From the IMG/VR virus record IMGVR_UViG_3300032323_003202, positions 7,077 to 71,076 of that record: DNA of 64,000 nt; one strand, given 5' to 3'. The notes beneath the pieces are model-generated. The model saw only the letters and a list, made by a program, of their open reading frames with translations. It ran no database searches and had not been told where the DNA came from. A program made the translations under genes and the position numbers. Below are positions 41,171-62,858 of this stretch, piece after piece (position 1 is the first letter of the stretch; every line of letters starts with the position of its first letter). The stretch is from a virus.

Positions 41171-41182
41171 ACTGGGTTTTTT
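41158..41182. terminator. Bidirectional terminator
   Basis: AACCCAG-attaaa-CTGGGTT followed by a T-tract. Confidence 0.65.
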
Positions 41183-45950: not shown

Positions 45951-46262
45951 ATGAAAAATTTATCAGAGACTATTATTCTTCAACTTTGGGAAGAATCTAT
46001 TAAAGGAAAAGGTTCAAGACCAGATGGTTGTTCTATACATATAGACTTAGAAAGTAGATTACATTATATCAATACAGAATATGAATTAAGACAATCAAAT
46101 GTTATTCCTGATGAATATGAAGTAGCAGTTGGTACACCAATTAAAGTTCATGTAACTGATAATATCTATAATATTCTAAAAGAAGAAAAATCAATTAGAT
46201 TATTACAAACAGAACTAAGAAACTTAGTTGATTTAAAAGAAATTGAATATATTTTAAATTAA
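45951..46262 (+). CDS. Hypothetical protein
   Basis: WEES..G.RPDGCSIH motif. Confidence 0.65.
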   Translation: MKNLSETIILQLWEESIKGKGSRPDGCSIHIDLESRLHYINTEYELRQSNVIPDEYEVAVGTPIKVHVTDNIYNILKEEKSIRLLQTELRNLVDLKEIEYILN

Positions 46263-47587: not shown

Positions 47588-47725
47588 ATGAAGGCAAAAG
47601 ATGTAATGTTAAAGTATAGTATAACAAGAAGAACCCTAAGTAATTGGGTTAAGAAAGGTATAATTGAAGTAGAACTTACTCCAACAGGTAGATATATTTA
47701 TATTGAAAAAAAGAAAGAAATATAA
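47588..47725 (+). CDS. 45-aa MerR/excisionase-type HTH protein (not in ORF track)
   Basis: MKAKDVMLKYSITRRTLSNWVKKGII..TPTGRYIY; TAATG-coupled to the HNH gene. Confidence 0.7.
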   Translation: MKAKDVMLKYSITRRTLSNWVKKGIIEVELTPTGRYIYIEKKKEI

Positions 47726-48417
47726 TGAAAAGTTGTAGTAAATGTAAAATTGAAAAAGAATTTATTCATTTTCATAAATGTTCAAAGAATAAGATTGGAT
47801 ATAGGTCACAATGTATTTCTTGTGGAAATGAATATAAAATTCTAAATAAAGATAAACAAAAAGAATATTTTAAAAATAGAAATAATTCAAAAAAAGAAGA
47901 ATTAAAAGTAAAAGCATCAGAGTATTATTTGATAAATAAAGAAAGAATTATATCAAAAACTAAAGAATACTATGACAATAATAAAGAATCTAAATTAGAG
48001 TATCAAAAAGAGTATCAAAAAAACAATAAAGATAAAAGAAATTCTTACCTAATTGAAAGAAGACAAAATGATCCTTTATTTAAGCTAATAACAAATGTTA
48101 GAAATTTAATATATAATTCATTCTATTATAATGGATATTCTAAAAATTCAAAGACAGAAGAACTATTAGGTTGTTCTTTTGAAGAACTAAAGCAACATTT
48201 AGAATCTAAATTTGAACCTTGGATGACTTGGGATAATAGAGGATTATATAATGGTGAATTAAACTATGGTTGGGATATTGACCATGTTATACCATTATCA
48301 AGTGTAAATGAAGAAATTGATATAATAAAATTAAATCATTATACAAATTTACAACCACTCTGTAGTAAAGTAAACAGAGATATAAAGAAAGATAATTTAG
48401 AATATGGCGTCATATAA
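47725..48417 (+). CDS. HNH-type homing endonuclease with N-terminal Zn ribbon
   Basis: CSKC..CISC; WDIDHVIPLSS..LNHYTNLQPLC..N. Confidence 0.8.
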   Translation: MKSCSKCKIEKEFIHFHKCSKNKIGYRSQCISCGNEYKILNKDKQKEYFKNRNNSKKEELKVKASEYYLINKERIISKTKEYYDNNKESKLEYQKEYQKNNKDKRNSYLIERRQNDPLFKLITNVRNLIYNSFYYNGYSKNSKTEELLGCSFEELKQHLESKFEPWMTWDNRGLYNGELNYGWDIDHVIPLSSVNEEIDIIKLNHYTNLQPLCSKVNRDIKKDNLEYGVI

Positions 48418-50158
48418 CAATTTTGACACAAATAGTAACACTGCAAACTTTGGAGCTGCTGGACAATCTGCAGTAGAAAACAAAGGACTATTTAATAGGA
48501 TATTAAGGACTTTATCATCTTATGGTATGAACTATGATGATATGATTATTAGAAATCAAGTAGGTATTGGAATTAATGAAGATCCATATGCTGCTCGTGG
48601 AAATTCGATGTATGATTTCTTCTCCCAAAGGGCTGTAGCATCTGTATTAAACAGAAAATCAATACCTTATCTAGACAAAGCTTATGCAGATAAAAGAAGA
48701 ATTTTAAGAGAGTATTCTATTAAAGATGAGATTAGAGACTTTGTGAGTTCAATTGCTGATGAGTGTATAGTTTATAATGATGAGAGAGATTTCTGTTCAC
48801 CAGTGGCTTTACCAGTAGAATATTCAACAGAGATACAAGATAAGTATCAAGAGTACTTTGAATCAATTTATAACAAGTTTGGTTTCTCTGATAACATTAC
48901 TGCATGGAATATGATGAAAGACTTTTTAGTTGATGGTTATGTTGCACTTGAGATTATATTTGATGATAAAAAGAAAAATATTATTAGTTTCAATAGATTA
49001 AGACCAGAGACTTTAGTTCCTGCATATGAACCAGCAATTGGTCATTTATGGATTCAGTTTCCTGAGGATCCACAATTAAGAAGAATATTTTTAGATTCAC
49101 AGATAGTTTATGTTTCTTATTCAACTCAAAATGAATTTTCAGAGACATCTTATGTAGAGGGTTTGATTAAGCCTTATAATCAATTAAAAATATTACAACA
49201 AACAAGAATAATGTTTAACATTATTAATGCAACTATTTATCAAAAGTTTACTATTCCAATCAAAGGTATGTCAAGACAAAGAGCAGAAGAGCAAATAGGT
49301 CAATTAATACATGATTATTCAGAAGAAGTAGAATGGGATGATTCATTGGGAACTTTAACAATTAATGGTTCTAAACACTTACCTTATAACAAACAGATTT
49401 GGTTTCCTGAGGGAGATGGTGGGACACCTAATATGGAATTAGTTTCTCCACAAGGTCATAACTTAAATGATGACACAATGTTAGATTGGTTTTTCAAGGC
49501 ACTAAAAAGGGCATCTAAAATACCAATGTCAAGATTTGAAGGTGATAATGGTGGTGGTAACTTAGTTACTGATGCAGCTGAGATGACAAGAGATGAGATT
49601 AAGTTTCACAACTTTGTAAATAGATTAAGATCTAACTTTAAAGAATTAATTGTTAAACCATTAAGACTACAGATGTTAATTGAATTTCCTGAATTAAAAG
49701 ATGACCAGTTTTTTACAAATGCTATTGATGTTAATTTCTTTACCAATCAAGTATTTGAAGAATGGAAAAAGATAAACAATTTAGAAAAGAAAGCAGGTAT
49801 AGTTGGTACTTTACTTGGTGTTATGAATGGTGAGAAACCATACTTTCACATTGAATGGATTATGGATAATGTATTCAAACTTACTCCAGAAGAAAAGGCA
49901 GAAAATGCTAAGTACTGGGCAATGGATGTTGCTAATCAAGCAGCTGCAGCAACTGGTGAACCTGGTGCTCCATCAGAAGGTGGTGGAGGTGGTGGCTTTG
50001 GTGGTTCTGGTGAAAGTGGTGAAATGCCTGGTGGTGGAGGTCAAGCAGCTCCACAAGCAGCACCTGAAGCTCCTGCACAAGGTGGAGGTCAAGCAGCACC
50101 TCAAGCAGCACCAGAAGCTCCTCCAGCACCAGAGGGTGGAGGTGAGTTTGAATTCTAA
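48404..50158 (+). CDS. Portal protein (T4 gp20-like)
   Basis: FLVDG, SYVEGLIKPYNQL, KIPMSRF, EMTRDEIKFHNFVNRLRSNF; Gly/Ala/Pro tail. Confidence 0.92.
   Translation: MASYNNFDTNSNTANFGAAGQSAVENKGLFNRILRTLSSYGMNYDDMIIRNQVGIGINEDPYAARGNSMYDFFSQRAVASVLNRKSIPYLDKAYADKRRILREYSIKDEIRDFVSSIADECIVYNDERDFCSPVALPVEYSTEIQDKYQEYFESIYNKFGFSDNITAWNMMKDFLVDGYVALEIIFDDKKKNIISFNRLRPETLVPAYEPAIGHLWIQFPEDPQLRRIFLDSQIVYVSYSTQNEFSETSYVEGLIKPYNQLKILQQTRIMFNIINATIYQKFTIPIKGMSRQRAEEQIGQLIHDYSEEVEWDDSLGTLTINGSKHLPYNKQIWFPEGDGGTPNMELVSPQGHNLNDDTMLDWFFKALKRASKIPMSRFEGDNGGGNLVTDAAEMTRDEIKFHNFVNRLRSNFKELIVKPLRLQMLIEFPELKDDQFFTNAIDVNFFTNQVFEEWKKINNLEKKAGIVGTLLGVMNGEKPYFHIEWIMDNVFKLTPEEKAENAKYWAMDVANQAAAATGEPGAPSEGGGGGGFGGSGESGEMPGGGGQAAPQAAPEAPAQGGGQAAPQAAPEAPPAPEGGGEFEF
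50030..50125 (+). repeat. Duplicated GGGQAAPQAAPEAP unit in the portal low-complexity tail
   Basis: GGTGGAGGTCAAGCAGC..CAAGCAGCACC..GAAGCTCCT occurs twice. Confidence 0.8.
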
Positions 50159-50192: not shown

Positions 50193-50597
50193 TGTTTCTG
50201 GTAAGTCTATTGTAAATGAAACATTTCTCTCTGTGAATACTTGTCTGACTTCAAGTTCTATACCTGCATCATAAATTTCTTTTAATTTTTTTCCACAATC
50301 AGTTTCTAAAAATTCTGCTTCTAATGTTAAGTTTTCAATATTATTATCTTTTATAATGAAAGTCATACCACTTATACTAAAAGCCATTGTTTGTAATTTA
50401 CCTGGATTTTCAAGAGTTACAAAATCTTGTACCATTCCAATCTTTTGTATATTGTCAACATCAAACTGAACTTTCTTACCTTCGAGTAGTGTAGATAGTT
50501 TAATATCTCTATAAAAAGATTTCCACTCATTATAAGTGGAAAGTGCTTTATCATACTGGTCTAAAGTATTATTGTTTAGTTTTACATTTAATTTCAT
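50175..50597 (-). CDS. Hypothetical protein with RDIKLSTLL motif
   Basis: TAATG-coupled downstream of RNase R. Confidence 0.6.
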   Translation of the reverse strand: MKLNVKLNNNTLDQYDKALSTYNEWKSFYRDIKLSTLLEGKKVQFDVDNIQKIGMVQDFVTLENPGKLQTMAFSISGMTFIIKDNNIENLTLEAEFLETDCGKKLKEIYDAGIELEVRQVFTERNVSFTIDLPETKNPFN

Positions 50598-52471
50598 TAG
50601 AATACTTCAAAATCTATTTGTTTTCTATCTAAGTCAACTGATTTAACAGTTACTTTAATTTCATCACCTAATCTTATTGAACCTCCCATTTTAGGAAATA
50701 CAATATAATTTTCAGCATCAACTGTGTAGTTATTGTTATATCTAACCATTCCTTCACATTTACTATCAATAAGTTCTACATACATACCCCATTCAGTTAC
50801 TCCTGATACAATACCTTCAAATACATTTCCAATTTTATCTTCTAAGTATTCAATTTGTTTATATTTAATTGAGTCTCTTTGTGCTTTTGCTGCTAAGATT
50901 TCTCTTTCAGAACACCATTTAGCCATATCTTCAATTTTCTTAGGACTTCCAATTGATTTTTTATTTAAGTAGTCAAATAAAACTCTATGAGTTATTAAAT
51001 CTGGATATCTTCTAATTGGTGAAGTAAAGTGAGAGTAGTGAGTAAATCCTAATCCATAGTGTCCAGAGTTTATAATTGTATAAGTTGCTTTAGACATACA
51101 TCTTGTGATTAAAGTTTCAATCATATTTTCTTCTGGTTTACCTTTAATATCTCCAACCAATTGGTTAATTGATTTTTTAAGATTTGTTGGTTCACCTTCA
51201 ACTTCTAAAGTATAACCAAAGTTTTTACATATTAAAGAAAGAGCTTGTAACTTTTCAATATTAGGAGTATCATGTACTCTATAAACATTTGGATATTTTG
51301 CTTCTGATAATTCTTTAGCAACTAATTTATTTGCAAGTAACATATATTCTTCAATAAGTTTATTTGCATCTTTTTGAGTTTTAAAATAAACACCAGTTGG
51401 TTTCTTTGTAATTGGATCCAATTGAAATCTTACTTCAATTCCACCCATTTCAATAGAACCATCTTCTATTCTTTGTTTTCTCATTTTCTTGGCAGTTGTA
51501 TCTAATAGAAGTATTTCAGTTTTGAAATCTCCATCTTTACCTTCAATTATTTCTTGAGCTTCTTCATAAGAGTATCTTCTATCTGAATGTATAATAGTTT
51601 TACCAAACCATTTATTCAATACTTCTCCTTCTCTATTTAAAGTAACTACAACTGAGAAACAAAGTTTATCTTCATTAGGTCTTAATGAACATACACCATT
51701 ACTCAATCTCTCAGGTAACATTGGTACACATCTATCAACTAAATAAACTGATGTGGCTCTGTTAATTGCTTCATCATCTAAATCAGTTCCTTCTTTAACA
51801 TAGTGAGATACATCTGCAATATGAATACCAACTTCAACAGTATCATTATCTAAAATGTTTACTGAAAGAGCATCATCAAAATCTTTAGCATCAACAGGGT
51901 CAATGGTAAAGGTTGTAATACTTCTCATATCTCTTCTTTTTTCTATTTCATCTTGTGATATTTCAAAGGGAATTAATTCTGCATCAGCTTCAACCATTAG
52001 AGGGAAACTATTAGGTAATCCATATTCATACATAATTGAGTTCATTTCGGTATTGTTATCTCCAGATTCTCCTAAGATTTCAATAATTTTACCTTTAGGT
52101 GATTTAGAACCAGGTTCCCAGCTTGAGAACTCAACCAAAACTTTTTGGTCATTCTTAGCATTGTGGTCACCTTTAATATAAAAATCTACTGGAATTTTTT
52201 GACTGTCTGGTATTACAAAGGTTAGGTCTTTGTTTAAGTGTACTTTACCAACAAATTGGGTACGGAATCTTTCTAATACTTCTATTACTTCCGCTTCTAC
52301 TTTATTATTCTTAATAATAATCTTAACTTTTACTTTATCTGAGTTAAGTGCATTCAAAGTATTTTTTTTATAGATAAAAATACTTTTATTCTCTATTGTA
52401 ATGGATGCATTACCACTATTTGAGAATTCTATAGTACCATCATAGATACTATCTTCTTTTAATTTATTCAT
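50597..52471 (-). CDS. rnr: Ribonuclease R (RNB family)
   Basis: CSD region, TIDPVDAKDFDDALS, HIADVSHYV, LIEEYMLLAN, YSHFTSPIRRYPD, C-terminal S1. Confidence 0.93.
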   Translation of the reverse strand: MNKLKEDSIYDGTIEFSNSGNASITIENKSIFIYKKNTLNALNSDKVKVKIIIKNNKVEAEVIEVLERFRTQFVGKVHLNKDLTFVIPDSQKIPVDFYIKGDHNAKNDQKVLVEFSSWEPGSKSPKGKIIEILGESGDNNTEMNSIMYEYGLPNSFPLMVEADAELIPFEISQDEIEKRRDMRSITTFTIDPVDAKDFDDALSVNILDNDTVEVGIHIADVSHYVKEGTDLDDEAINRATSVYLVDRCVPMLPERLSNGVCSLRPNEDKLCFSVVVTLNREGEVLNKWFGKTIIHSDRRYSYEEAQEIIEGKDGDFKTEILLLDTTAKKMRKQRIEDGSIEMGGIEVRFQLDPITKKPTGVYFKTQKDANKLIEEYMLLANKLVAKELSEAKYPNVYRVHDTPNIEKLQALSLICKNFGYTLEVEGEPTNLKKSINQLVGDIKGKPEENMIETLITRCMSKATYTIINSGHYGLGFTHYSHFTSPIRRYPDLITHRVLFDYLNKKSIGSPKKIEDMAKWCSEREILAAKAQRDSIKYKQIEYLEDKIGNVFEGIVSGVTEWGMYVELIDSKCEGMVRYNNNYTVDAENYIVFPKMGGSIRLGDEIKVTVKSVDLDRKQIDFEVF

Positions 52472-52853
52472 TCTTTTTTATTTTTTTGGAGATATTATCC
52501 ACTCCATATTTTTTAATTAATGTTTTTTTCATCTTATCTAAAACTCCTTTATTCTGAATAGGATAATCTACTCCAAAGTTTTTTCTAAGTGTTTCCTTCC
52601 TCTTACTCTCTGAACACTTTCTACAAAAATATTCTCCCCAAACATTATCATATTTAAGGTAATTCTTATAGATTACATCTTTCTCAACCCCACAAACATC
52701 ACATTTACATTTAATTTTATAATGAGAACCTTTTGGTAATAAATCAACTGGAATCACTATTTCTTCTCCTATATATACATCATATCCTAAATAATCATAA
52801 TAGTTGTAATTTGACTCAATTATTTTAATATTTATCTCTCTTGAAAGGATCAT
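52464..52853 (-). CDS. Zn-binding endonuclease-associated module without a nuclease domain
   Basis: CKCDVCG..CRKC and K.TL.KKYGVDN repeats. Confidence 0.55.
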   Translation of the reverse strand: MILSREINIKIIESNYNYYDYLGYDVYIGEEIVIPVDLLPKGSHYKIKCKCDVCGVEKDVIYKNYLKYDNVWGEYFCRKCSESKRKETLRKNFGVDYPIQNKGVLDKMKKTLIKKYGVDNISKKIKKNE

Positions 52854-52947
52854 AAAAAACCACTTATTTTTAAGTATTTATTAAAATATCAATCTCCCTT
52901 TTTATCAAAATTAAAACTTCCTTATTTCATAAGACTTTACAAAGATA

Positions 52948-52999
52948 CTATAAAAAATCCACTTCTCAAAAATAAGTAATTAGTAATAATTATATATAC
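52948..52999 (+). promoter_or_regulatory. CTATAAAAAATCCAC element + TATATATAC upstream of the protease gene
   Basis: Identical 15-mer at similar spacing upstream of the MCP gene. Confidence 0.55.
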
Positions 53000-53028
53000 C
53001 ACAGAACTACAAAAAATAATTATTTTAA

Positions 53029-55212
53029 ATGAAACCAGTTTTAATAGTAGAAAATTCAACAAATTCTCTTGTAAGAGAGAGTGCTTCTACAGGTAATAAG
53101 GATTTTTTCCTTAATGGTACTTTTACAGAGTTTGGTGTTAAAAATCGTAATGAAAGAATATACACTGCTGAGAAGTTCTTACCTGCATTGGCAGAGTTGA
53201 ATGAAAGAATGAGCAGCTTAGGTGCTGTTTTTGGTGAGTTTGATCACCCAGATGTTTTTGATACCTCATTGTCAAGAGCATCTCACATCATCACCAAAGC
53301 TGAATATGTTTCTGAAAAGAACACAGTTGAAGGAGAAATCAAATTGTTAAGTACATATTGGGGAAAAGAAGCAAAGGCATTAGTTAATGATGGATGTCCT
53401 GTTTTTGTATCTTCTAGAGCTGCAGGAATTACTGAATCTGATGGTTCAGTATCATTGAAAAAACTTTTTACTTATGACATTGTTGCTGATCCAGGATTTG
53501 CATCTGCAAAAATGAGTGTAAAAGTATTAAATGAATCTTTAGGTTACTGTACTGATGGACAAATTGAAAAAAATAACTTTAGGATATATGAGATGTCTGA
53601 CGAGTCCAAAATGAACGAATTATTCAAAATGAACAACAATGACTTTGTAACAAAACAACAATTAACTGATTATTCAAACTATTTAGTTAATGAGATTGCT
53701 TCTACTAAGAAAGTAGTAAACAATGCAATTACAAAAGGTAATATGCCTGCTAAGAAATTAGAGCAATTACTTGAGTATTATGAAGAGTTAAATGGAACTA
53801 ACTCACAAGTTGCTAAATATTTAGATTATTTAGCTGACAAAATTCAAGTAGTAGTTAATGAAAACAAATCATTAAAAGAAACTACTACAAAATTGGCTAA
53901 ACACAATGATTACTTAGCTGAGAACTTAGAAAAAGCTATTAATTATTCAGAATATTTAGCTGAAAACTTAGACAAAAACATTGAGTATTCAGAGTATTTA
54001 GCTGAGAACTTAGATAAAAATATCAACTACTCAGAATATATTGCTGAAAACTTAGATAAAAACATTTCTTACTCAGAATATTTGGCTGAAAACTTAGACA
54101 AAAACATTGAGTATTCAGAATATTTAGCTGAAAACTTAGACAAGAATATTGCTTACTCTGAATACATTGCTGAAAACTTAGACAAAAACATTGCTTACTC
54201 AGAATATATTGCTGAGTCAGTTGATAACTCTATTGCTTACTCAGAATACTTAGCAGAACATGTTGAAGGTAACATTGCTTACTCAGAATACATTGCTGAG
54301 CATTTAGATGATAACATTGCTTACTCTGAATATGTTGCTGAAAACTTAGACAAATCTATTTCTTACCAAGGAATGATAGTTGAAAAACTTAATGCATTTG
54401 GTAAATTAAATGAAGGATTTGGTGAAGATGATACTCAATTCCCATCTATTGAAGATGCTGGATTTGAATCTCAAGAAGATGATAAAGAAGGTCAATTTGC
54501 TGGAGAAGAAGGTGAAGAATTTGCTGGAGAAGAAGGACACAATGACTTTGCAGAAGAGGCTAAAGAATTTGCTGAAGAAGCTAAAGAATTTGCTGAAGAA
54601 GCTGAAGAATTTGCAGAAGGACATGAAGGTGAAGGACATGAAGGTGAAGAATTTACACAAGAAGAAGGTGAAGAAGAATTTGCAGGTCATGATGACTCTG
54701 AACTTTCTGAATCAATAAATAAATTAATTGAAGAAGCTAAAAAACGTAAAGTTTCTGAAAGCAGTGATTTGAACTTTTTAAAGTTCTTAAACAAATCACA
54801 AGTTGATAGTTTTTATGCTCTATCAGATGAAGAACAAGATACTGTTAAACTACACATAAACGAGAGTAGTTATTTTACACAGAAAGAAGTTCTTACTTTG
54901 ATCTCAGAAGCATTATCAACTAAAAACGAAACTCTTGAAGAAAGAGTAATCAGATTGATGCCTGATAACATTAAGCCAATCTGGGGTACTTTAAATGAAT
55001 CTGCTAAAAAATCTGTCTTATCACAAGCTAGATTATATCCAGAGGAAGTTTTAAGAACTGAAAATCAAATTGAGCATTTCTGGGGAACTAGAAATATCAA
55101 AACTAATGAAACTGTAACTAAAAAACTTGTTGCTCATGAAGGTTTAATCCAAGAGGATAAACTATCTGATAATGAAGTTTCTATGATTATGGAAAGATTT
55201 AGAAGAGTATAA
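53029..55212 (+). CDS. Prohead protease (T4 gp21-like) fused to scaffold/core-like domain
   Basis: NRNERIY, GEFDHP (His), VSSRAAG (Ser), YDIVADPG; then coiled-coil repeats and an acidic region. Confidence 0.9.
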   Translation: MKPVLIVENSTNSLVRESASTGNKDFFLNGTFTEFGVKNRNERIYTAEKFLPALAELNERMSSLGAVFGEFDHPDVFDTSLSRASHIITKAEYVSEKNTVEGEIKLLSTYWGKEAKALVNDGCPVFVSSRAAGITESDGSVSLKKLFTYDIVADPGFASAKMSVKVLNESLGYCTDGQIEKNNFRIYEMSDESKMNELFKMNNNDFVTKQQLTDYSNYLVNEIASTKKVVNNAITKGNMPAKKLEQLLEYYEELNGTNSQVAKYLDYLADKIQVVVNENKSLKETTTKLAKHNDYLAENLEKAINYSEYLAENLDKNIEYSEYLAENLDKNINYSEYIAENLDKNISYSEYLAENLDKNIEYSEYLAENLDKNIAYSEYIAENLDKNIAYSEYIAESVDNSIAYSEYLAEHVEGNIAYSEYIAEHLDDNIAYSEYVAENLDKSISYQGMIVEKLNAFGKLNEGFGEDDTQFPSIEDAGFESQEDDKEGQFAGEEGEEFAGEEGHNDFAEEAKEFAEEAKEFAEEAEEFAEGHEGEGHEGEEFTQEEGEEEFAGHDDSELSESINKLIEEAKKRKVSESSDLNFLKFLNKSQVDSFYALSDEEQDTVKLHINESSYFTQKEVLTLISEALSTKNETLEERVIRLMPDNIKPIWGTLNESAKKSVLSQARLYPEEVLRTENQIEHFWGTRNIKTNETVTKKLVAHEGLIQEDKLSDNEVSMIMERFRRV
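53908..54367 (+). repeat. 42-bp / 14-aa tandem repeat (NIAYSEYLAENLDK), 10 full copies plus flanks
   Basis: Ten YSEY units counted in the translation. Confidence 0.92.
54490..54690 (+). repeat. Acidic 7-aa repeats (EFAEEAK / EFAGEEG)
   Basis: GAATTTGCTGAAGAAGCT repeats. Confidence 0.8.
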
Positions 55213-55213
55213 T

Positions 55214-55264
55214 CTATAAAAAATCCACACTTGAAAAAAAGTGAAAAAACAAGGATATATATAC
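55214..55264 (+). promoter_or_regulatory. CTATAAAAAATCCAC element + TATATATAC upstream of the MCP gene
   Basis: Second copy of the 15-mer. Confidence 0.55.
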
Positions 55265-55307
55265 ATTTATAGATTACATAAAAAAAACAAAAAAAAATAA
55301 AATTATT

Positions 55308-56999
55308 ATGTCACAAATTAGAATAGATAATCAAAAAGCCATGAAAAAATGGTCTCCAGTGTTGGAAAACATGGGAGTAACAGGTGATAGACTTGAATGG
55401 ATGTCAGAATATGCTGAATTCCACTCTATCAATGAGAATGCATATGTTAATGCTACAAATGTAGCAGGTATGGGTAATGTAACTAACCCAGTTGTTGGTT
55501 CACTTCCAGGTAACACTTTAGGTGGTCAATTTGGTGCAGGTCTTGGTGCAGTTTCAGGTTCTGGTGATGTTGGTCAAAACTTATTACCAGTTGCAATGAA
55601 AATTGCTGCTCAAACAATTGGTTTAGACTTAGTTGCTGTAAAACCAACTCCAGGTCCAAAATTAGATTTACTTTATATTGACTTTCAATATGATGATGTT
55701 GATATGAATACTGATGTTAATGAAAGACCACAAGTTTTCAAAATTTCTGCAACTGCATCTACATTAAATGCATTAGCTGGATTAACAAATTCAGGTACAA
55801 TTACAACAGGTCAAGGTAGTTTAGTTGGTGGTAGAGTATTCCTTAGTATTGCTACATCTTCAACTACTGTTGGAACAGGTGTTTTTTATACTGAGCCAGT
55901 TAAAGGTTCTAGACAAAATATTGTTGAATTCTTAGGATTCTCAAGAATTGATGGATTACCAATGTTTAGAGCATTTAGACAAGCTAACACATCTGGTGCT
56001 TATACACCTAATACTTTTGTACAAGGTGATAATACATTTTTACCAACTGGTGCTATGACTACTCAAATATTATTTGTTGCTGGTATTGCACAAGCTTCTC
56101 CTGCAATTACATTAGTATCTGCATTAGAAGATCACCTTCCAGGTTTCTCTTCAAACTGGTCAGCTCCATTAACAGGTGCTGCTTCAGGTGCTTATCCAAT
56201 GACAAGATTAGAAGATGATCAATCTTACTCAGGTGTTATTGGACCAAAAATTTCTTCTAAAACTATTGCAGTTGGTACTATTGAAATATCTTCAGCTTTA
56301 AGAAGAACAGAAATTGAAGACATCAAAGCTAACACAGGTATGGATATTGTTCAAAAAATGGAATCAATCCTTGTTAATGAATTGTCTCAAACAATCTCTA
56401 AACAAATTGTTGCTAAAATATTTGAAATGGGAGCTTTAAATGCTACAACTGCACCTAAAAAACAAAATGGTGAGTCAATATTTGACTTAAATACAGCATA
56501 TGCATATGGTAATACTTCACCAGGTGGAGAGACTACTCACGCTATCCAAAGAAAACTTATAACTAGAATTGCTCACGCTTCTAACTATATTGCAACTGAA
56601 GGACGTGTTGGACCAGCTCAATACTTAATCACAAATGGAGGTTTAGCTGCTGCATTACAAGATATTGCTGGTTACACAATTAACCCAGTTAAATCTAAAA
56701 TTAACTCTCAAGGTCAACTTTACCCAGTTGGTTCTATCGGAGACATCTCTATCTATGTTGATCCATACATGAGATATAACGATAACAGAATCGTATTAGG
56801 TAGAAAAAATAACCCTGACCAACCAGGTATCATCTTTGTACCTTACTTAATGGCACAATCTATCTCAGTTATCTCTGAGGCTACATTTGCTCCAAGAATG
56901 TTACTAAGATCAAGATATGCTGTTGCAGAAGTGGGATGGTATCCACAAAAACAGTTCATGACTATTACAGTTACTGATGCTGTTCAATTACTTAACTAA
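55308..56999 (+). CDS. Major capsid protein (T4 gp23-like)
   Basis: KKWSPVLE, DLVAVKPTPGP, IYVDPY, GIIFVPY, TFAPRMLLRSRYA. Confidence 0.93.
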   Translation: MSQIRIDNQKAMKKWSPVLENMGVTGDRLEWMSEYAEFHSINENAYVNATNVAGMGNVTNPVVGSLPGNTLGGQFGAGLGAVSGSGDVGQNLLPVAMKIAAQTIGLDLVAVKPTPGPKLDLLYIDFQYDDVDMNTDVNERPQVFKISATASTLNALAGLTNSGTITTGQGSLVGGRVFLSIATSSTTVGTGVFYTEPVKGSRQNIVEFLGFSRIDGLPMFRAFRQANTSGAYTPNTFVQGDNTFLPTGAMTTQILFVAGIAQASPAITLVSALEDHLPGFSSNWSAPLTGAASGAYPMTRLEDDQSYSGVIGPKISSKTIAVGTIEISSALRRTEIEDIKANTGMDIVQKMESILVNELSQTISKQIVAKIFEMGALNATTAPKKQNGESIFDLNTAYAYGNTSPGGETTHAIQRKLITRIAHASNYIATEGRVGPAQYLITNGGLAAALQDIAGYTINPVKSKINSQGQLYPVGSIGDISIYVDPYMRYNDNRIVLGRKNNPDQPGIIFVPYLMAQSISVISEATFAPRMLLRSRYAVAEVGWYPQKQFMTITVTDAVQLLN

Positions 57000-57016
57000 T
57001 CATTAAATAATTATAT

Positions 57017-57044
57017 AAAAAGACTCCTTTTAGGAGTCTTTTTT
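57017..57044 (+). terminator. Intrinsic terminator after MCP
   Basis: AAAAAGACTCCT-tt-(T)AGGAGTCTTTTTT. Confidence 0.85.
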
Positions 57045-57069
57045 GTTTTATATAATTAATATATACATT

Positions 57070-57462
57070 ATGAGAATAAAGAAATATAAATCATTTAATG
57101 AGAGTAAAAATAAATTTCCAAACATAAAAACTTTGGATATTGATGGATTTATTGTATATTTGGGTCGAGATGCAAAATCTAATGACCATTTAACATTTAA
57201 TATGTCTGATTCTGATGATATTTGGATGCATACAAAAGGTGTTCCAGGTAGTCATATGTTAATTGTAGTTAAAGAAAAATTACCTACACCAGAAGTAATT
57301 AAAAGAGTTGCTGAGATTGCAAAAAAGAATAGCAAAGCAAAAGATGAAGATAAGGCAACTGTAGTTTATTGTAAAGCAAAATTTGTTAAAAAACAACCTG
57401 GTATGAATGATGGTCAAGTAAGAGTTGATTATGGTAACTCACATGAGGTAATAGTAAATTAA
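57070..57462 (+). CDS. NFACT-R (DUF814-like) RNA-binding domain protein with leader MRIKKYKSFNES
   Basis: LGRDAKSNDHLT, DIWMHTKGVPGSH, A.IA..SKA, V.Y, VKK..G..GQV. Confidence 0.85.
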   Translation: MRIKKYKSFNESKNKFPNIKTLDIDGFIVYLGRDAKSNDHLTFNMSDSDDIWMHTKGVPGSHMLIVVKEKLPTPEVIKRVAEIAKKNSKAKDEDKATVVYCKAKFVKKQPGMNDGQVRVDYGNSHEVIVN

Positions 57463-57471
57463 ATAAAAATA

Positions 57472-58818
57472 ATGGCAGATATAAAAATAAAGTTTTCACC
57501 AAGATTTATAAAAGTTATCAAAAGAATTGATGATGAGTTTGAAAATAATCTATCCTATAAGATATTAGGTCTTATTGATGGTAGTCTTAAATATGAAAAT
57601 ATTTTAAATATTTTTTATATGGATCTATCTAAAATAAATAATTGTTTTGATATTGTAGTTAAAGGTAAAAAAACAACTATAAGTATTGCAAAGTTTAGTA
57701 ATACTTATTTTCCTGATTTAAAAATTACTGACCAAGCTTTAATAGAGTTTCATACTGCTTATAATTCATTTAAAGGAGAAGCATTTGGTATTGTAGTTGG
57801 TACACCAATAGAACATAAACCATTTGTTTTTAATCCTAAAGATGTCCGTTCAACTTTCTTATCATTAGTTACAAAGACTTACCCAATGGGTCATGAGAAA
57901 GAAGTATTACAATTTCTACCTAAACTTGATACTGATATTCATGGAAATTATTATAAGATAATTCCTGGTGATACAAAAACTATGTTTACTTCTCACTTAG
58001 ATACTGCAGACTGGAAACAATTACCTACTAAATTAATGTCTAATACTATTGATAATGAAGAATTCATATTTACTGATGGTACAAGTATTCTTGGTGCAGA
58101 TGATAAAGCAGGAGTTACTATAATGCTTTATATGATGGCTAACAATGTTCCTGGATTATATTACTTCTTCTTAGGTGAAGAAAGAGGTGGTGTTGGTTCA
58201 AGATTAGTTGCAGGAGATTTTGATGAAATAGAATATCTTAAAGATATAAGAAGATGTATATCATTTGATAGAAGAAAAACAGGTTCTGTTATTACTTCTC
58301 AATATGGTAGAGTTTGTTGTTCTGATGAATTTGGTTCTGCTTTATGTAGAGAATATAATAGTAATGGTATGAAATTATCATTAGACAATACTGGAATATT
58401 TACAGATTCTGCTTCTTTTATTGATAATATACCAGAATGTACTAATATATCTGTTGGATATGACCATGAACATACATTTACTGAAATACAAAATATTACA
58501 TTCTTAGAAAAGATTGCTAAAGCATCTGCTAATGTTGAATGGAGTAAACTACCTACCATTAGAAAAGTAGGAATAAATAGTGAAGTTATTAGAAAATATA
58601 AAAACTTAATACAACAAATTAAAAAATATGCATTTGACCTTGATGTAAAAGTTATTGGTTATGATGGTAAAGTATTTATTCAGTTTGATACATTGGGTTA
58701 TGATATAAAAACAATAGGGAACACATTAAAATATCTTAATAATATCTTATTAAGATATAATATTGATGATCCTTATGTAGAATTTGAAGATACATATATT
58801 AAAATTGAAATAAGATAA
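57472..58818 (+). CDS. M28/M20-like Zn peptidase
   Basis: SHLDT, LGADDKAG, GEERG, SFDR, FTDS, NISVGY..EH. Confidence 0.8.
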   Translation: MADIKIKFSPRFIKVIKRIDDEFENNLSYKILGLIDGSLKYENILNIFYMDLSKINNCFDIVVKGKKTTISIAKFSNTYFPDLKITDQALIEFHTAYNSFKGEAFGIVVGTPIEHKPFVFNPKDVRSTFLSLVTKTYPMGHEKEVLQFLPKLDTDIHGNYYKIIPGDTKTMFTSHLDTADWKQLPTKLMSNTIDNEEFIFTDGTSILGADDKAGVTIMLYMMANNVPGLYYFFLGEERGGVGSRLVAGDFDEIEYLKDIRRCISFDRRKTGSVITSQYGRVCCSDEFGSALCREYNSNGMKLSLDNTGIFTDSASFIDNIPECTNISVGYDHEHTFTEIQNITFLEKIAKASANVEWSKLPTIRKVGINSEVIRKYKNLIQQIKKYAFDLDVKVIGYDGKVFIQFDTLGYDIKTIGNTLKYLNNILLRYNIDDPYVEFEDTYIKIEIR

Positions 58819-58819
58819 T

Positions 58820-59197
58820 ATGATAGATAATTATAAAAAGTTTACAGAGAGTGTTGATGATAGAGACCATTATGATGATGAATATTATGGTCATAATAAT
58901 GATGGTATGGAACATATAACTTACTTATTAAGAACTTCTTTAAGAAACAAAGGTATTGATGATTTTACAGTTGATTATTCTGGTTATGATATATGTATAT
59001 CAGTATTTTGTTATGAATTAGAAAGATTAAAAGATATGATTAATATATTTGATATATTACAACATCTAAAAACTGATATTATACCACAATATGATTCTGA
59101 ATTTGATATGTATCAAACTAAAAGAACAGGTGGTACTATATTAGAGTTTAATTTCTATTATAATGAAGGAAATGGTGATGATTTTGATAATGAATAA
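58820..59197 (+). CDS. Hypothetical protein with leader-like MIDNYKKFTES
   Basis: ORF track. Confidence 0.6.
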   Translation: MIDNYKKFTESVDDRDHYDDEYYGHNNDGMEHITYLLRTSLRNKGIDDFTVDYSGYDICISVFCYELERLKDMINIFDILQHLKTDIIPQYDSEFDMYQTKRTGGTILEFNFYYNEGNGDDFDNE

Positions 59198-59217
59198 AAA
59201 ATTAATATATTTGTACT

Positions 59218-60516
59218 ATGAAGAAAAATAATGAAGGTCTTTTTAATAGATTTAAGAAAAAAGAAACAGGAGATAAATTTAAAGATTTATTCTTAAAATT
59301 AACAGAATACACTATTCCATATGGTCATGAGACTAAATTAGAAAAATATTTACCTACTGGATATAAAAAAGATTCAATTGGTAATTACTATATTCAAGTT
59401 GGTAAATCAGAAACTTTATTTACAACTCACTTAGATACATATTCTGATGAATATGAAAAAGTAAATCATGTAATTGAAGGAGATATTATTAAAACTGATG
59501 GTACTACTATATTAGGTGGTGATAATAAATTAGGAATGACTATTCTATTAAATATGATAGAAAGAGGTATTCCAGGTACTTATTATTTCTTCTTAGGTGA
59601 AGAGCCAATTTTAAGTGGTGGTCTATGGGGTTCACAAAATGCATTAGAAGCCAATCCAGAGTTTTTCAAACAATTTAAGAGAGCAGTTGCATTTGATAGA
59701 AAACAAACAGGTTCTGTTGTAAGAAGACAAAAAGCAAGATATTGTTGTTCTCAAGAATTTGCAGAAGCACTTTCTGATGAATTAACAGATTTAGGAGTTG
59801 AATCAAAACCAGACCCAAATGCATATTATACTGATACTGCAACTTTCTTAGATATTATACCAGAATGTACTAATATTAGTGCTGGTGGTTGGAAAGAACA
59901 CTTTAAAGAAGAATGGGTTGATTTAGGATATACTAAAAGAGTATTAGAAGCAGCTTGTAAAGTAGATTGGGAAAACTTACCAACTGAAAGAAAAGTAACT
60001 TATTACCAACCAAAATCAAATATTATACCAAGACATAGATATGCAGGTAAAAAAACTATTTTAGCAGTTAAGAAGATATTAAATAAATATGATTTACTTC
60101 ATACTAATGAATTAGAGTTCAATACTTATAATACAGATACATTAGTATTTAACACTTGGTTTGAAGAGGTTGATATAAAAGTAACTATAGTTGATGATAT
60201 TTTACTTCAAATTGAAGGCGAAGAACCTATTAGATTTGAGTTTAATGAATTGGAAAAATTAGACCTTTACTTTGGTAACTTATTTGGTGTTGAAATTGAT
60301 CCAAACAAATATAAAATGATGGCTTATCAAGATGGTTCAATTAGTATATTAGGACAACAATTTGCAAGTGTACAAGACTATTTAGAAATGTTTGATAGTA
60401 TCAATAGTGATGATACATCTTATGTTATTAAAAAAGGTGGTGAACAATATAAATACTATGGTGATATTATCCCAAAAGAATTAGTATTTAAGTGGTTTGA
60501 AGAAAATGTTGAATAA
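59218..60516 (+). CDS. M28/M20-like Zn peptidase paralog
   Basis: THLDT, LGGDNKLG, GEEP, AFDR, YTDT, NISAGG..EH. Confidence 0.8.
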   Translation: MKKNNEGLFNRFKKKETGDKFKDLFLKLTEYTIPYGHETKLEKYLPTGYKKDSIGNYYIQVGKSETLFTTHLDTYSDEYEKVNHVIEGDIIKTDGTTILGGDNKLGMTILLNMIERGIPGTYYFFLGEEPILSGGLWGSQNALEANPEFFKQFKRAVAFDRKQTGSVVRRQKARYCCSQEFAEALSDELTDLGVESKPDPNAYYTDTATFLDIIPECTNISAGGWKEHFKEEWVDLGYTKRVLEAACKVDWENLPTERKVTYYQPKSNIIPRHRYAGKKTILAVKKILNKYDLLHTNELEFNTYNTDTLVFNTWFEEVDIKVTIVDDILLQIEGEEPIRFEFNELEKLDLYFGNLFGVEIDPNKYKMMAYQDGSISILGQQFASVQDYLEMFDSINSDDTSYVIKKGGEQYKYYGDIIPKELVFKWFEENVE

Positions 60517-60567
60517 AAAGTAAACTTTTTAGGCTTTTTAATTATAATATATAGTATTACATTATTA

Positions 60568-60932
60568 GGGGGTGTTACAGAATTGATTTGTGGTCTAATA
60601 GTGATTATGCAAGTATCGGGTGGTCTACAATGACCGATTAATAAATTAGTTGATACAATTTTAAACGGAAACGTAAACCAAGTAGGAACAAGTGAAGATA
60701 TAGTAGCTTGCTTACAAAACAACATGATCTCTGATCTAGTAGTAGCTTAATTAAGTTTAAACTATTATGCACAAAAAAGCTGTGTCACCAGTTGAAAAGT
60801 GAAACTTTTTTATTAGAGTTTTGAGATTCAAAAACTAAATATTTTGTAAGTTAAGAAAAACTTACTAAACTTGTAAATGAATAGTTATTATTAACTGAAA
60901 AAGACACGTTGGGCAGTACAACGTCACCTCCA
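60568..60932 (+). ncRNA. ssrA: Phage-encoded tmRNA (one-piece)
   Basis: 5' GGGGGTG pairs with 3' CACCTCC-A, including G3.U70; T-arm ACGTTG-GGCAGTA-CAACGT; helix 2 AATAGTGATTAT/TGCAAGT pairs with ACTTGTA/ATAGTTATTATT; internal tag ORF 60667-60750; upstream AATATATAG; downstream terminator. Confidence 0.9.
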
Positions 60933-60936
60933 CAAC

Positions 60937-60967
60937 AAAAAAGTCCATCAAATTGATGGACTTTTTT
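60937..60967. terminator. Bidirectional terminator after tmRNA
   Basis: AAAAAAGTCCATCA-aat-TGATGGACTTTTTT. Confidence 0.85.
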
Positions 60968-61439
60968 ATTTTAATTTAACATATATTTGAATTTTCTTTA
61001 TCTTTTTATTTGTTGTTCTTCCTGATAGTAGTTGCTTTCTATCATAGAAAAAATGTGTATGTTGTGTGATATACATAGGAGTTTCAAAATCCACAACTAA
61101 TTCATCTTTTATATCCTTTTGATATGAAGGAACCCAATCATTATTAAAAGTTCCACATATTTCATATTTACTATCCAACATTTCAAAAAAAGGTATAAAA
61201 TCATCTTTAATTTCTCTCCAATAAAATGAGTTTATTCTTTCAGAATCTCTTAAATGTGCTGCATCTCTTTTAACTTTTTCAAATACTAATCTCCAAGCAT
61301 TACAATTTGGTGTCCATACAACTCTTACTTGATATCCTTCATCAAGTAAATAAGCTAAGTTCTCATTACAAAATTTTTGTAATTCTTCTTTGATTTCAGA
61401 ATTACCAAATGATTCAAAAAACTTTCTTAAATATTTCAT
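60966..61439 (-). CDS. Hypothetical protein with leader MKYLRKFFESF
   Basis: ORF track; upstream TAATATATA. Confidence 0.65.
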   Translation of the reverse strand: MKYLRKFFESFGNSEIKEELQKFCNENLAYLLDEGYQVRVVWTPNCNAWRLVFEKVKRDAAHLRDSERINSFYWREIKDDFIPFFEMLDSKYEICGTFNNDWVPSYQKDIKDELVVDFETPMYITQHTHFFYDRKQLLSGRTTNKKIKKIQIYVKLK

Positions 61440-61470
61440 ATATTATATATTAAATGTTAATTTTGTAATT

Positions 61471-61977
61471 ATGATAAATAGATTTGATGGTAGATATAGT
61501 TTTCTTTCAAACTTCTACCCCTGTAAAATAGAACACCAAGGTATAACTTACCCATCTGTTGAGGCATTTTATGTTGCAATGAAATGTAATAGTAATCAAA
61601 CATTTGATGGAGTATATTATACAACAGTGGATTTTAGAGAAATGATTGCTGTTGTTAAAAGTCCTGGTCATGTAAAGAAAATAGGACAAAAAATTAAGAT
61701 AAGACCTGATTGGGATTCTAAGAAATTAGAGTTTATGACTTGGGGAGTTAATGAAAAATTTAAAGATCCTACATTAAAAGAAATGTTACTAATGACTGGT
61801 AATGTTGAAATTGTTGAAGGTAATTATTGGCACGATAATTTTTATGGTCAGTGTTCTTGTGAAAAATGTGCAGGCAAAGGTAAAAATCATTTAGGTAAAC
61901 TTTTAATGGAAATTAGAAGTGAATTAAGTGGAACAAAAAAACCAAACCTTTATGATGTCTTATTCCCAAAGAAATAA
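61471..61977 (+). CDS. NADAR (YbiA-like) family protein
   Basis: FLSNFYP, YPSVEAFY.AMK, RPDW, KF, LLMTG, E.NYWHD.FYG, GKNHLGKLLMEIR; start re-called at MINRF. Confidence 0.88.
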   Translation: MINRFDGRYSFLSNFYPCKIEHQGITYPSVEAFYVAMKCNSNQTFDGVYYTTVDFREMIAVVKSPGHVKKIGQKIKIRPDWDSKKLEFMTWGVNEKFKDPTLKEMLLMTGNVEIVEGNYWHDNFYGQCSCEKCAGKGKNHLGKLLMEIRSELSGTKKPNLYDVLFPKK

Positions 61978-62030: not shown

Positions 62031-62858
62031 ATGAGAAAATTAAAGGAACTTACAAAGGAAGAAGAACAAGAAATTGTTCTTAAAAGACAAAATGGATTAA
62101 AAAGGAAAGACATAATAAAGGAATATGGTATTTCAGATAGACATTACCAAAAAGTAATTGTTGAAAATGGTGGTGAATTAAATGAAAGAACTAGAAAGTT
62201 TAACTTTGATGAAAATTACTTTGAAAATATAGACACAGAGGATAAGGCATATTTTTTAGGTTTCATAGTTGCAGATGGTAGTGTTAACAATAAAACATTG
62301 AATATATCACAAAAAGAACCTGATATTTTATATGAGTTTAAAAGATATATAAATTTTGAGGGTAAAATTTTAAAAAGTAAAGGAAGAAATATACATACAA
62401 TAAATTTATATTCTGAAAAAACTATAAATGATTTATATAGATTAGGTATCTATTCAAATAAAACTATGATAGTGAAATATCCTGAAATACCTAAAGACTT
62501 AGAACATCATTTTATGAGAGGTTTATTTGATGGTGATGGTTGTATATCAATACATAAAAAGAGAAAAGGTGGAAGAGATACCACAGATAGAGGACAAGTT
62601 AATATATGCTCAGGTAGTAGAGATTTTATTGAAGAGTATGTTGAAAGATTGAATAAGTATTGTGGTATAACAAAAAATAAAATAAGATGTCCAAAGGGAA
62701 CATATAATGTAATAGATTGGGCATCATTTAGTGATATAGAGAGGTTCTATGATTTTTTCTACAAAGATGCAACTATTTATCTAAAGAGAAAAAAAGAAAC
62801 TTTTGATATGGCAATATCTATAAGTAAGAGTAAAACAAAATACAGAAAAAAAAATTAA
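62031..62858 (+). CDS. LAGLIDADG homing endonuclease (two motifs, free-standing)
   Basis: AYFLGFIVADGS and FMRGLFDGDGC; N-terminal HTH-like segment. Confidence 0.87.
   Translation: MRKLKELTKEEEQEIVLKRQNGLKRKDIIKEYGISDRHYQKVIVENGGELNERTRKFNFDENYFENIDTEDKAYFLGFIVADGSVNNKTLNISQKEPDILYEFKRYINFEGKILKSKGRNIHTINLYSEKTINDLYRLGIYSNKTMIVKYPEIPKDLEHHFMRGLFDGDGCISIHKKRKGGRDTTDRGQVNICSGSRDFIEEYVERLNKYCGITKNKIRCPKGTYNVIDWASFSDIERFYDFFYKDATIYLKRKKETFDMAISISKSKTKYRKKN

Follow-up and report, generated by a model that had tools for sequence, protein, structure and literature searches.

The DNA analysed here is a 64 kb stretch (64,000 nt, called the window throughout) of IMG/VR record IMGVR_UViG_3300032323_003202, a 71 kb viral contig that CheckV estimates to hold 12% of a genome. 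Its nearest deposited relatives are the uncultured phage genomes LR745206 (635 kb) and LR756502 (642 kb), with LR756504 (636 kb) more distant, and the window lineage is a freshwater megaphage related to the first two. Huge-phage genomes of more than 634 kb have been assigned to the Mahaphage clade, for which Bacteroidetes hosts were predicted (Al-Shayeb et al., 2020, PMC7162821). The region analysed is a T4-like head module in which genes of ribosome-rescue type are interspersed. Our subject is one of these, a divergent transfer-messenger RNA (tmRNA), together with the genes just upstream for a solo NFACT-R domain protein and an aminopeptidase-like protein, which probably belong to the same task. 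The features concerned are the following.

50597-52471, -: RNase R core enzyme (gene rnr), 624 aa; RNB 358.9 bits, with CSD2, OB_RNB and S1
57070-57462, +: solo NFACT-R domain protein, 130 aa (open reading frame 57043/57070); PF05670 52.3 bits against a cut-off of 29.8
57472-58818, +: pepA, clan-MH aminopeptidase-like, between the NFACT-R gene and the tmRNA; phrog_4191 212.5 bits
59218-60516, +: pepB, a paralogue of pepA (38% identical); phrog_4191 'peptidase' 180.1 bits
60540-60556, +: TATAAT-like A/T-rich box, conserved in 16 homologues, at 12-28 nt before the 5' end of the RNA
60568-60932, +: tmRNA (ssrA), divergent one-piece type, about 365 nt, by comparative structure
60568-60574 with 60925-60931: acceptor strands of the tmRNA; 60906-60924: its T-arm; 60932: its discriminator A
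60667-60750, +: tag reading frame; resume codon GGA after UAAAC, 27 codons to 60747, TAA stop at 60748-60750
60937-60967, +: intrinsic terminator, a 14-bp hairpin with T-run that starts 5 nt past the RNA 3' end

The RNA at 60568-60932 is a genuine tmRNA, with exactly the ends that the initial annotation of this DNA, made from the sequence alone, had given it. It is missed by the standard detectors: ARAGORN finds no tmRNA gene in the window and none at the tmRNA loci of LR756502, LR745206 and LR756504, and Rfam at gathering thresholds has no match in the window. These negatives reflect the detectors and not the absence of a tmRNA; its presence is shown by covariation and by a conserved acceptor end. 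Homologues were gathered from the complete relatives LR756502 and LR745206, from 18 IMG/VR contigs found with a 20-nt degenerate conserved block, and from 80 contigs reached through the NFACT-R protein. (A 15-nt conserved block, tried as the collection pattern, matched at least 118 unrelated AT-rich contigs and was replaced by the 20-nt block.) Sixteen full-length homologues made up the first alignment and 50 distinct sequences a larger MAFFT alignment, at 397-408 columns. RNAalifold on the 16 sequences recovers the architecture of a tmRNA. With an explicit structure of 71 pairs, 97.5% of the cells in these 16 sequences were paired, as opposed to 33-50% when the partners were slid, and 24 of the 71 pairs had changed on both sides; none of 500 shuffles reached any of five measures. 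The same structure with stem 2 of pseudoknot 1 (PK1) added gave 90.6% paired cells in the 50 sequences (33-48% when slid), with 42 of 74 pairs changed on both sides and again none of 500 shuffles doing as well. An unguided scan of all compatible helices was swamped by A-U/G-U noise and was dropped for the explicit structure. A long-range helix proposed by RNAalifold (columns 84-90/267-272 of the 16-sequence alignment) had only two states, which track the clade split, and was left out.

At the tRNA-like end, the 5' strand GGGGGTG forms a helix with CACCTCC (next letter A) that includes a G3:U wobble. An alignment-independent check finds seven of seven acceptor pairs, G3:U70 and the discriminator A in all 50 distinct homologues; pair 5:68 is A-U, G-C, C-G or G-U among the homologues, and pair 6:67 flips to A-U once. 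The T-arm lies 5' of the acceptor 3' strand, and in the 50 sequences all five of its stem pairs covary, with 99.2% of cells paired. The same set shows a P2 helix of 24 pairs (94-100% paired, 12 of them changed on both sides) and a PK1 stem 1 that is paired in 100% of cells and has two covarying pairs. Stem 2 of PK1 has 4-7 bp in 16/16 homologues checked singly, with register shifts, and 87% of its cells are paired in the fixed 50-sequence alignment. PK2 has an H-type layout in all 16, with a variable S1 of 3-6 bp and an invariant S2, UCAC/GUGA. In these 16 sequences the PK3 region folds as a hairpin, and there may be a PK4-like stem of 4-5 bp. Two distant tmRNA copies (L246:12633-12985 and L249:13565-13917) are 353 nt long and have a near-canonical UUCGUC T-loop, with no matches to the major capsid protein (MCP), NADAR or rnr nearby; they could be forms intermediate between canonical and divergent tmRNA.

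The tag reading frame has no start codon. It extends over 27-29 codons among the homologues and stops with TAA in 49 of 50 and with TAG in the other. In the 16 sequences of the first alignment, the frame is always open to a TAA stop and the two other frames hold stops; indels within it measure 3 or 6 nt only, those just upstream 1-2 nt. The codon that follows the conserved UAAAC/UAAAU is GGC in 35 of the 50 sequences, GGA in 11 and GAC in one (the anchor was misplaced in the other three). We infer from this position the exact resume codon, an assignment supported by the Rfam alignment of the LR756504 tmRNA, which puts the resume point at the equivalent place, between UUAAAU and GAC. The tag of LR756504 has 24 codons, starts with D-N-V-N and ends with A-V-A-A. 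An internal motif, E-D-L-V-x-A-L-Q-N-N, is conserved across the 50 sequences. Part of the tag is constrained as RNA, because a hairpin inside the frame (60687-60716, columns 118-151 of the 16-sequence alignment) covaries while altering the encoded residues, as in codon pairs giving T-S with A-C versus T-R with A-A.

The RNA also appears to be made: abundant, discrete contigs in RNA libraries match its predicted ends. Metagenome DNA runs that contain the locus stretch carry freshwater, lake-water and estuary labels. Six metatranscriptome runs each hold 6-10% of the sampled words of the stretch, and the 365-nt RNA makes up 8.7% of that stretch. RNA contigs over the tmRNA (60566-60935) have contig-level depths of 427.5, 423, 36.7 and 15.2, as opposed to 1-10 for the flanking genes in the same runs, including the contigs of the peptidase genes beside the tmRNA. 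The deepest (X15, 427.5) comes from a relative with a differing middle 125 nt; the others are X16 (60566-60926, depth 423), X19 (60579-60931, depth 36.7) and X17 (depth 15.2). This is a strong hint, rather than a measurement, that the tmRNA is an abundant discrete RNA species in these libraries. In X16, a contig of 400 nt closes on itself (60935 to 60566) into a 370-nt cycle, with the junction within 2-3 nt of the predicted ends; this could be a library or assembly artefact of an abundant short RNA, or stem from end-joined molecules. Positions 60989-61100 are covered by no RNA contig, which does not count as evidence of absence. Downstream, a terminator scan found two terminators against 0.3 expected, and the homologues have a hairpin and T-run of differing sequence. 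Upstream, the TATAAT-like box at 60540-60556 is a possible promoter, to judge from its sequence; a scan for the sigma-70 consensus found 8 matches against 6.4 expected from shuffles, which is no enrichment, and does not list this box.

Trans-translation needs partners, and here the relatives are informative. The window holds no smpB, as had been noted, and neither does the 71 kb record (12% of a genome). The further suggestion that the SmpB of the host is used instead is probably wrong, since a full SmpB (167-177 bits, 144-155 aa) is encoded in all five relatives that are complete or at least 95% complete, namely LR756502, LR745206, LR756504 and two IMG/VR contigs rated 97% and 95%. The C-terminal tail G-K-K-x-Y-D-K-R is intact in these proteins, and the gene lies more than 100 kb from the tmRNA; SmpB was not found in two relative fragments rated 74% and 25% complete. 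Most likely, then, the tmRNA works with the phage's own SmpB. A CCA-adding-type nucleotidyltransferase is likewise encoded in 5/5 of the near-complete relatives, which fits the absence of an encoded CCA on the tmRNA. A full alanyl-tRNA synthetase (AlaRS) is absent from four of the five and the remaining one has a fragment of 292 aa, so that charging of the tmRNA would depend on the host AlaRS. Peptidyl-tRNA hydrolase (Pth) was found in none of the five. A short RF-1-domain protein with a GGQ motif is found as well in the three largest genomes (LR756502 107309-107629, LR745206 48139-48459, LR756504 568928-569242). Counted from its first Met it has 138-142 aa in two of the three, the size of ArfB and not of RF1/RF2, and neither of the two smaller near-complete contigs encodes it.

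The NFACT-R gene at 57070-57462 is confirmed by its PF05670 score, and ATG 57070 is its likely start, because members of the family typically have 128-130 aa. The family comprises 588 clusters, on contigs of up to 641 kb. The protein matches residues 432-557 of Bacillus subtilis RqcH (7aqc) with E = 3.3e-17, and the family profile matches CCDC25 (7eoe) with E = 1.4e-9. A structural model with a predicted local distance difference test (pLDDT) score of 86.8 gives Foldseek template-modelling (TM) scores of 0.74-0.77 to RqcH, at 35-38% identity, and of 0.72-0.74 to CCDC25, at 22%. N38, H54 and H62 are invariant in 13/13 aligned members, with spacings of 16 and 8 as compared with 17 and 8 for N27-H44-H52 of Jlp2, the yeast solo NFACT-R protein. 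Jlp2 directly hydrolyses ribosome-bound peptidyl-tRNA, according to a preprint (10.1101/2025.09.04.673968) in which H44 (H41 of CCDC25) is essential and N27 and H52 are not, Rqc2 is without this histidine, and the question is raised whether histidine-bearing NFACT-R domains represent a new class of release factor. By motif spacing and profile match, H54 of the phage protein is very probably the counterpart of Jlp2 H44, and the protein can be considered a candidate peptidyl-tRNA release factor of the Jlp2 kind, which would give the phage a second rescue or release activity. It may be more than the RNA-binding domain of RqcH/NEMF that the initial annotation had in view, since the solo protein Jlp2 is reported to be a release factor.

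Where the phage protein came from is suggested by the same comparisons. As its identity is 22% to CCDC25 and 35-38% to bacterial RqcH, it probably arose independently from the C-terminus of RqcH. Solo NFACT-R proteins are described only in eukaryotes in the part of the earlier domain survey that deals with them (Burroughs and Aravind, 2014, PMC4075521). Among 185,579 species-representative genomes, the best cellular matches are 32-49% identical. Of the 73 cellular matches 36 were examined, and in 35 of these, some from Bacteroidota, NFACT-R is the C-terminus of a protein of 440-605 aa. The lone solo-sized protein among the 36 has 127 aa, is 38% identical and lies on a Candidatus Uabimicrobium chromosome (1293958-1304260). 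Bacteroides thetaiotaomicron, taken as a control, has no NFACT-R match; Pontibacter, a Chitinophaga metagenome-assembled genome and other Bacteroidota have proteins of 491-530 aa that end in NFACT-R. Because Bacteroidota vary in this respect, the presence of RqcH in the host cannot be deduced from the phylum.

Linkage was analysed with NFACT-R as the anchor, at 80 viral IMG/VR loci in which the tmRNA was located with an nhmmer profile (E <= 1e-5); the loci are not independent, the 62 full-length tmRNA copies among them representing 46 distinct sequences. A tmRNA was found in 70/80 loci, the 10 without one all having less than 3.9 kb of downstream flank, and in 53/53 of those with at least 7.5 kb. 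The distance from NFACT-R to the tmRNA is 1.9-6.6 kb, with a median of 2.1 kb, and pepA is present in 72/72 loci with at least 2 kb of downstream flank. The rnr gene lies within 10 kb upstream of NFACT-R in 59/73 loci; in LR756502 it is found at 71 kb and the tmRNA at 232 kb, 160 kb apart, and it is absent from a 95%-complete contig (G002). NFACT-R, pepA and the tmRNA thus are a stable block within one large clade, to which rnr is loosely attached. The idea of a trio of tmRNA, RNase R and NFACT-R that was put forward for this DNA survives for the pairing of NFACT-R with the tmRNA but not for rnr, and the trio is not one co-inherited unit, as rnr varies in position and lies on the opposite strand and LR756504 has no NFACT-R. 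In five loci the tmRNA and the NADAR gene downstream of it are inverted together, and this pair is at least as tight as that of tmRNA and NFACT-R.

The third member of the block, pepA, has no Pfam match even at E = 10, and the same is true of pepB. The family profile of pepA matches the tripeptidase (PepT, M20) 3rza with E = 7.8e-13, and the invariant metal ligands of the family (H175, D177, D210, E236, E237, H334) align with the PepT motifs. In the structural model (pLDDT 81.2) the best Foldseek match is PepT 3gb0 (E = 6.8e-9), and TET/M42 proteins match as well. The description of both proteins as M28-like peptidases holds at the level of clan MH and fails at that of the family, as neither passes PF04389; a precomputed match to this M28 model exists for one of the 120 listed relatives. 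The second copy, pepB, occurs only in the subclade of the window (L020, L122, L129 and similar loci).

The RNase R gene is genuine, as had been annotated: the protein passes the NCBIfam equivalog model TIGR02063 with 648.8 bits (cut-off 597.85). It consists of the CSD1-CSD2-RNB-S1 core, covers positions 110-724 of the 813-position E. coli-type model NF008648, and its S1 domain ends at residue 623 of 624. The extensions of the E. coli-type enzyme, an N-terminal helix-turn-helix and a basic C-terminal tail, are absent. In E. coli, the K-rich C-terminal tail of RNase R is needed for its recruitment in dependence on tmRNA-SmpB. A role of the phage enzyme in the decay of non-stop mRNA, to which the initial annotation had linked it, is therefore unsupported by its anatomy, and general RNA decay is a likelier function of the protein than a dedicated partnership with the tmRNA. 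Next to rnr lies a small homing-endonuclease-like gene that stays at the same site where rnr is missing, in LR756502 and L127, so that rnr has the look of an insertion into the head module that some genomes have and others do not.

The surroundings are those of a head module, as had been said of them, with portal, prohead protease and MCP recognized by Pfam and PHROG matches. The remaining features are these.

48404-50158, +: T4-type portal protein, start of the head module; PF07230 Portal_T4 200.6 bits, phrog_213
between the portal gene and rnr, -: 140-aa open reading frame, placed by gene order
52464-52853, -: homing-endonuclease-like small gene; DUF7487 28.6 bits, PHROG homing-endonuclease families
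53029-55212, +: prohead (head-maturation) protease with a long C-terminal extension; phrog_207 110.7 bits, weak Peptidase_S77 match
55308-56999, +: MCP, gp23-like; PF07068 Gp23 103.3 bits, phrog_138
58820-59197, +: orf125, a conserved small protein with a homologue between pepA and the tmRNA in relatives; no match in Pfam or PHROG scans
between the tmRNA and the NADAR gene, -: 157-aa open reading frame, placed by gene order
61390-61977, +: NADAR-domain protein; PF08719 81.8 bits; the constant gene downstream of the tmRNA

Endonuclease-type genes of the head module encode a GIY-YIG protein (44707-45360), an endonuclease VII-like protein (47725-48417) and a LAGLIDADG protein (62031-62858). A gene with a TnsA-like N-terminal domain (46259-46789) in the module also has a PHROG match to 'head closure'. 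Thymidylate synthase (32637-33743), a clamp-loader-like AAA+ ATPase (41167-42138) and, beyond the LAGLIDADG gene, a D12-class adenine methyltransferase of the Dam type (62864-63856) are ordinary genes of large phages.

Together, these data speak for ribosome rescue by the phage, the central proposal of the initial annotation, in that the lineage encodes rescue functions at this locus. With a probability of about 0.75, the locus combines a divergent one-piece tmRNA at 60568-60932 with an NFACT-R protein and an aminopeptidase, encoded upstream, that probably share its rescue task. In such a scheme the tmRNA would be transcribed with the late head genes and trimmed, and a phage enzyme would add the CCA. 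Charged by the host AlaRS, it would be delivered, together with SmpB of the phage, to ribosomes that have stalled on non-stop or broken mRNA, where it would add Ala and a phage-specific tail of 27-29 residues before the ribosome terminates. NFACT-R may provide a second rescue or release activity beside the tmRNA, and the PepT/TET-like aminopeptidase of the pepA type could complete the breakdown of released or tagged chains.

Several observations weigh against this picture, and those that concern the RNA itself are best considered along with the alternatives that they would favour. In a permissive Rfam scan the RNA reaches 8.5 bits with RF00023 (gathering threshold 47; E = 0.83, at 60568-60935) and 11.1 bits with alpha_tmRNA (threshold 50), the latter a weak match to the 3' tRNA-like part, and ARAGORN is blank. 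The T-loop is without the canonical UUC motif in 48/50 sequences, being mostly GGGCAGUAC-like, and a CCA is missing from the gene. Of the helix at the stop codon, 41% of the cells are paired in the 50-sequence MAFFT alignment; as 96.8% are paired in the 16-sequence alignment, we attribute the drop to misalignment of an indel-rich region. The RNA depths are contig-level values from libraries that carry no strand information, in four runs of four studies, and the window's own genome is 12% recovered, with no SmpB of its own in the 71 kb record. The low Rfam score and the blank ARAGORN result would be natural if the likeness to a tmRNA were fortuitous and this were a non-coding RNA with some other structure, or the gene of a small protein. 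We consider this highly improbable: the full tmRNA architecture covaries, G3:U70 is kept in 50/50, and the RNA is homologous to the tmRNA of LR756504, which Rfam accepts at 65.2 bits. Moreover, the complete relatives have SmpB without any other tmRNA; RF00023 finds nothing above cut-off in the genomes of LR756502 and LR745206, only tRNA-sized sub-threshold matches, which leaves the divergent RNA as their only tmRNA candidate. It would also be surprising if the RNA were a decoy that blocks trans-translation in the host, for example by titrating host SmpB, EF-Tu or AlaRS. The non-canonical T-loop would suit such a role, and an inhibitory role has been considered for the ssrA of mycobacteriophage DS6A, which has the tRNA-like domain only (Hudson et al., 2014, PMC4131195). 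Against it, a complete message domain with a conserved open frame, indels that stay in frame and a conserved stop is kept in 50/50 copies, and the lineage has a full SmpB of its own. A further possibility leaves the rescue function untouched and concerns the tag, which might be a mark for a fate specified by the phage, such as recognition by a phage factor or evasion of host proteases that read the host tag, and not a classical degradation signal. The last three residues of the tag vary (ATV, ELV, VVA, AVA, ETA and others) and are not all of the classical non-polar degron type, while the internal E-D-L-V-x-A-L-Q-N-N is conserved; the tag is also long, with 27-29 codons compared with 13 residues in phage G (PMC12484599), as is the related tag of LR756504 with its 24. 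In most tags, nevertheless, the terminal residues are small or non-polar (V or A), and the in-frame RNA hairpin accounts for part of the internal conservation; we regard this candidate reading as rather unlikely.

The other objections concern the proposed cooperation. That H54 corresponds to H44 of Jlp2 is concluded from the spacing of the motif and from a profile match rather than from residues aligned one by one. B. subtilis RqcH has the same histidine, so the histidine alone does not prove activity, and we know of no report of release activity for RqcH. The linkage itself may reflect the conserved gene order of one clade, given that MCP is found in 70/73 of the loci and NADAR in 48/52 of those whose downstream flank measures 8 kb or more. 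In LR756504 a tmRNA and SmpB are encoded but NFACT-R is not; this genome also has an RNB protein that is 30% identical, and its tmRNA lies among tRNA genes. (Beside that tmRNA, at L162:2039-2114, a tRNA called by ARAGORN has the four-base anticodon tcta and is not assigned to an amino acid.) These points agree with the view of a real tmRNA that belongs to no functional cluster; RNase R, NADAR, NFACT-R and the aminopeptidases would then be independent auxiliary genes, brought close by the conserved order of the head module or, for rnr, by insertion. All genes of the block are about equally conserved in position (pepA, in 72/72, along with MCP and NADAR), rnr, oppositely oriented and next to a homing-endonuclease-like gene, is found elsewhere or is missing in some genomes, the five inversions carry tmRNA and NADAR away from NFACT-R and pepA, and SmpB is encoded more than 100 kb off. 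This view is a serious contender, though we would give it less than an even chance. NFACT-R is by homology a domain of ribosome quality control, and its solo form has release activity in yeast, so that it would be a notable coincidence if it stood beside a tmRNA by chance, and the linkage in 53/53 loci extends over tmRNA copies that differ by up to about 30%. We therefore retain the shared rescue task as the better account of NFACT-R, pepA and the tmRNA. One can go further and imagine the block as a self-contained system of the phage for the disposal of nascent chains, with a histidine-dependent hydrolase of the Jlp2 type, a long tag that the tmRNA adds with the phage's own SmpB, and recycling by the peptidase. 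In our judgement this is rather unlikely. If it were true, NFACT-R would be the first Jlp2-type peptidyl-tRNA hydrolase outside eukaryotes, with an independent origin from the RqcH C-terminus, and would free ribosomes or 50S subunits beyond the reach of the tmRNA; the tag would be read by factors of the phage and not of the host, and the aminopeptidase would recycle the products to amino acids for the burst of capsid synthesis.

The tmRNA family is widespread in freshwater megaphages, judging by the 46 distinct full-length copies from 80 IMG/VR loci and the 50 distinct sequences aligned, and few phage RNAs are more abundant in the four metatranscriptomes analysed. As ARAGORN misses it and Rfam scores it below threshold, surveys of phage translation genes undercount it, which a dedicated covariance model would remedy. 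With tmRNA, SmpB and a CCA-adding-type enzyme, joined in the largest genomes by the small GGQ protein, these phages have a near-complete kit for trans-translation and provide a concrete system in which to ask why, late in infection, a virus should require ribosome rescue of its own. The long conserved tag is a natural experiment in what tmRNA tags can encode, and the NFACT-R family is a compact, abundant and non-eukaryotic test case for release factors of the histidine type.

Literature on phage NFACT-R, on phage or viral tmRNA and on megaphage tmRNA yielded no description of this RNA family, of its site in the head module or of a phage NFACT-R, but each component has known counterparts. RqcH has the NFACT-R domain closest in sequence and fold, and shares with the phage protein the motif D-D-I-W-x-H-T-K-x-x-P-G-S-H. 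The phage protein is without the NFACT-N, helix-hairpin-helix (HhH) and coiled-coil/M domains, which in RqcH bind tRNA and the stalk base (PMC8012679), and for this reason it cannot be an Ala-tailing factor of the RqcH kind. Jlp2 and CCDC25 are, like the phage protein, stand-alone NFACT-R folds with an invariant N/H/H of nearly the same spacing; the phage protein differs in its length of 130 aa, without the C-terminal coiled-coil extension, and in having Lys at the site of Jlp2 D46, two residues after H54. PepT (M20B) and TET (M42) have the HxD, GADD, GEE and H motifs and the fold in common with pepA, which differs in about 120 extra N-terminal and 80 C-terminal residues, in a TM score of 0.34-0.42 over the whole query and in being a gene of a phage head module.

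As to the RNA, huge phages have been reported in general terms to carry tmRNAs and SmpB (Al-Shayeb et al., 2020, PMC7162821). The tmRNA tally of that study, as far as its account of the method goes, probably omitted the present family, because ARAGORN, which was used there, finds none at the loci of LR756502, LR745206 and LR756504. Phage ssrA genes are also known from mycobacteriophages of the Bxz1 group (Hudson et al., 2014, PMC4131195) and from Bacillus phage G (PMC12484599). In contrast to the present RNA, these are found by standard tools, the tag of phage G has 13 residues, and adjoining SmpB, RNase R or NFACT-R genes are not mentioned in the sections of these papers that describe them. 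The tmRNA of LR756504 shares the GGGGGUG acceptor strand, the GCAAGU/ACUUGUA portion of P2, a tag start of the form x-N-V-N and a non-canonical T-loop; it differs in its Rfam score of 65.2 bits, its encoded CCA, its place among tRNA genes and the absence of NFACT-R from its genome. Compared with bacterial SsrA (RF00023), the phage RNA is sub-threshold, receives no ARAGORN call, has no encoded CCA, a tag of 27-29 codons, a site in a head module, and a hairpin-like PK3/PK4 region with possibly one short pseudoknot stem; its T-loop is the same as that of the Rfam alpha_tmRNA consensus. What it has in common with bacterial SsrA is the acceptor stem with G3:U70 and discriminator A, the T-arm, the long P2 helix, PK1 ahead of the resume codon, a reading frame without a start codon, the stop helix, the layout of PK2, a length of about 365 nt and SmpB as partner.

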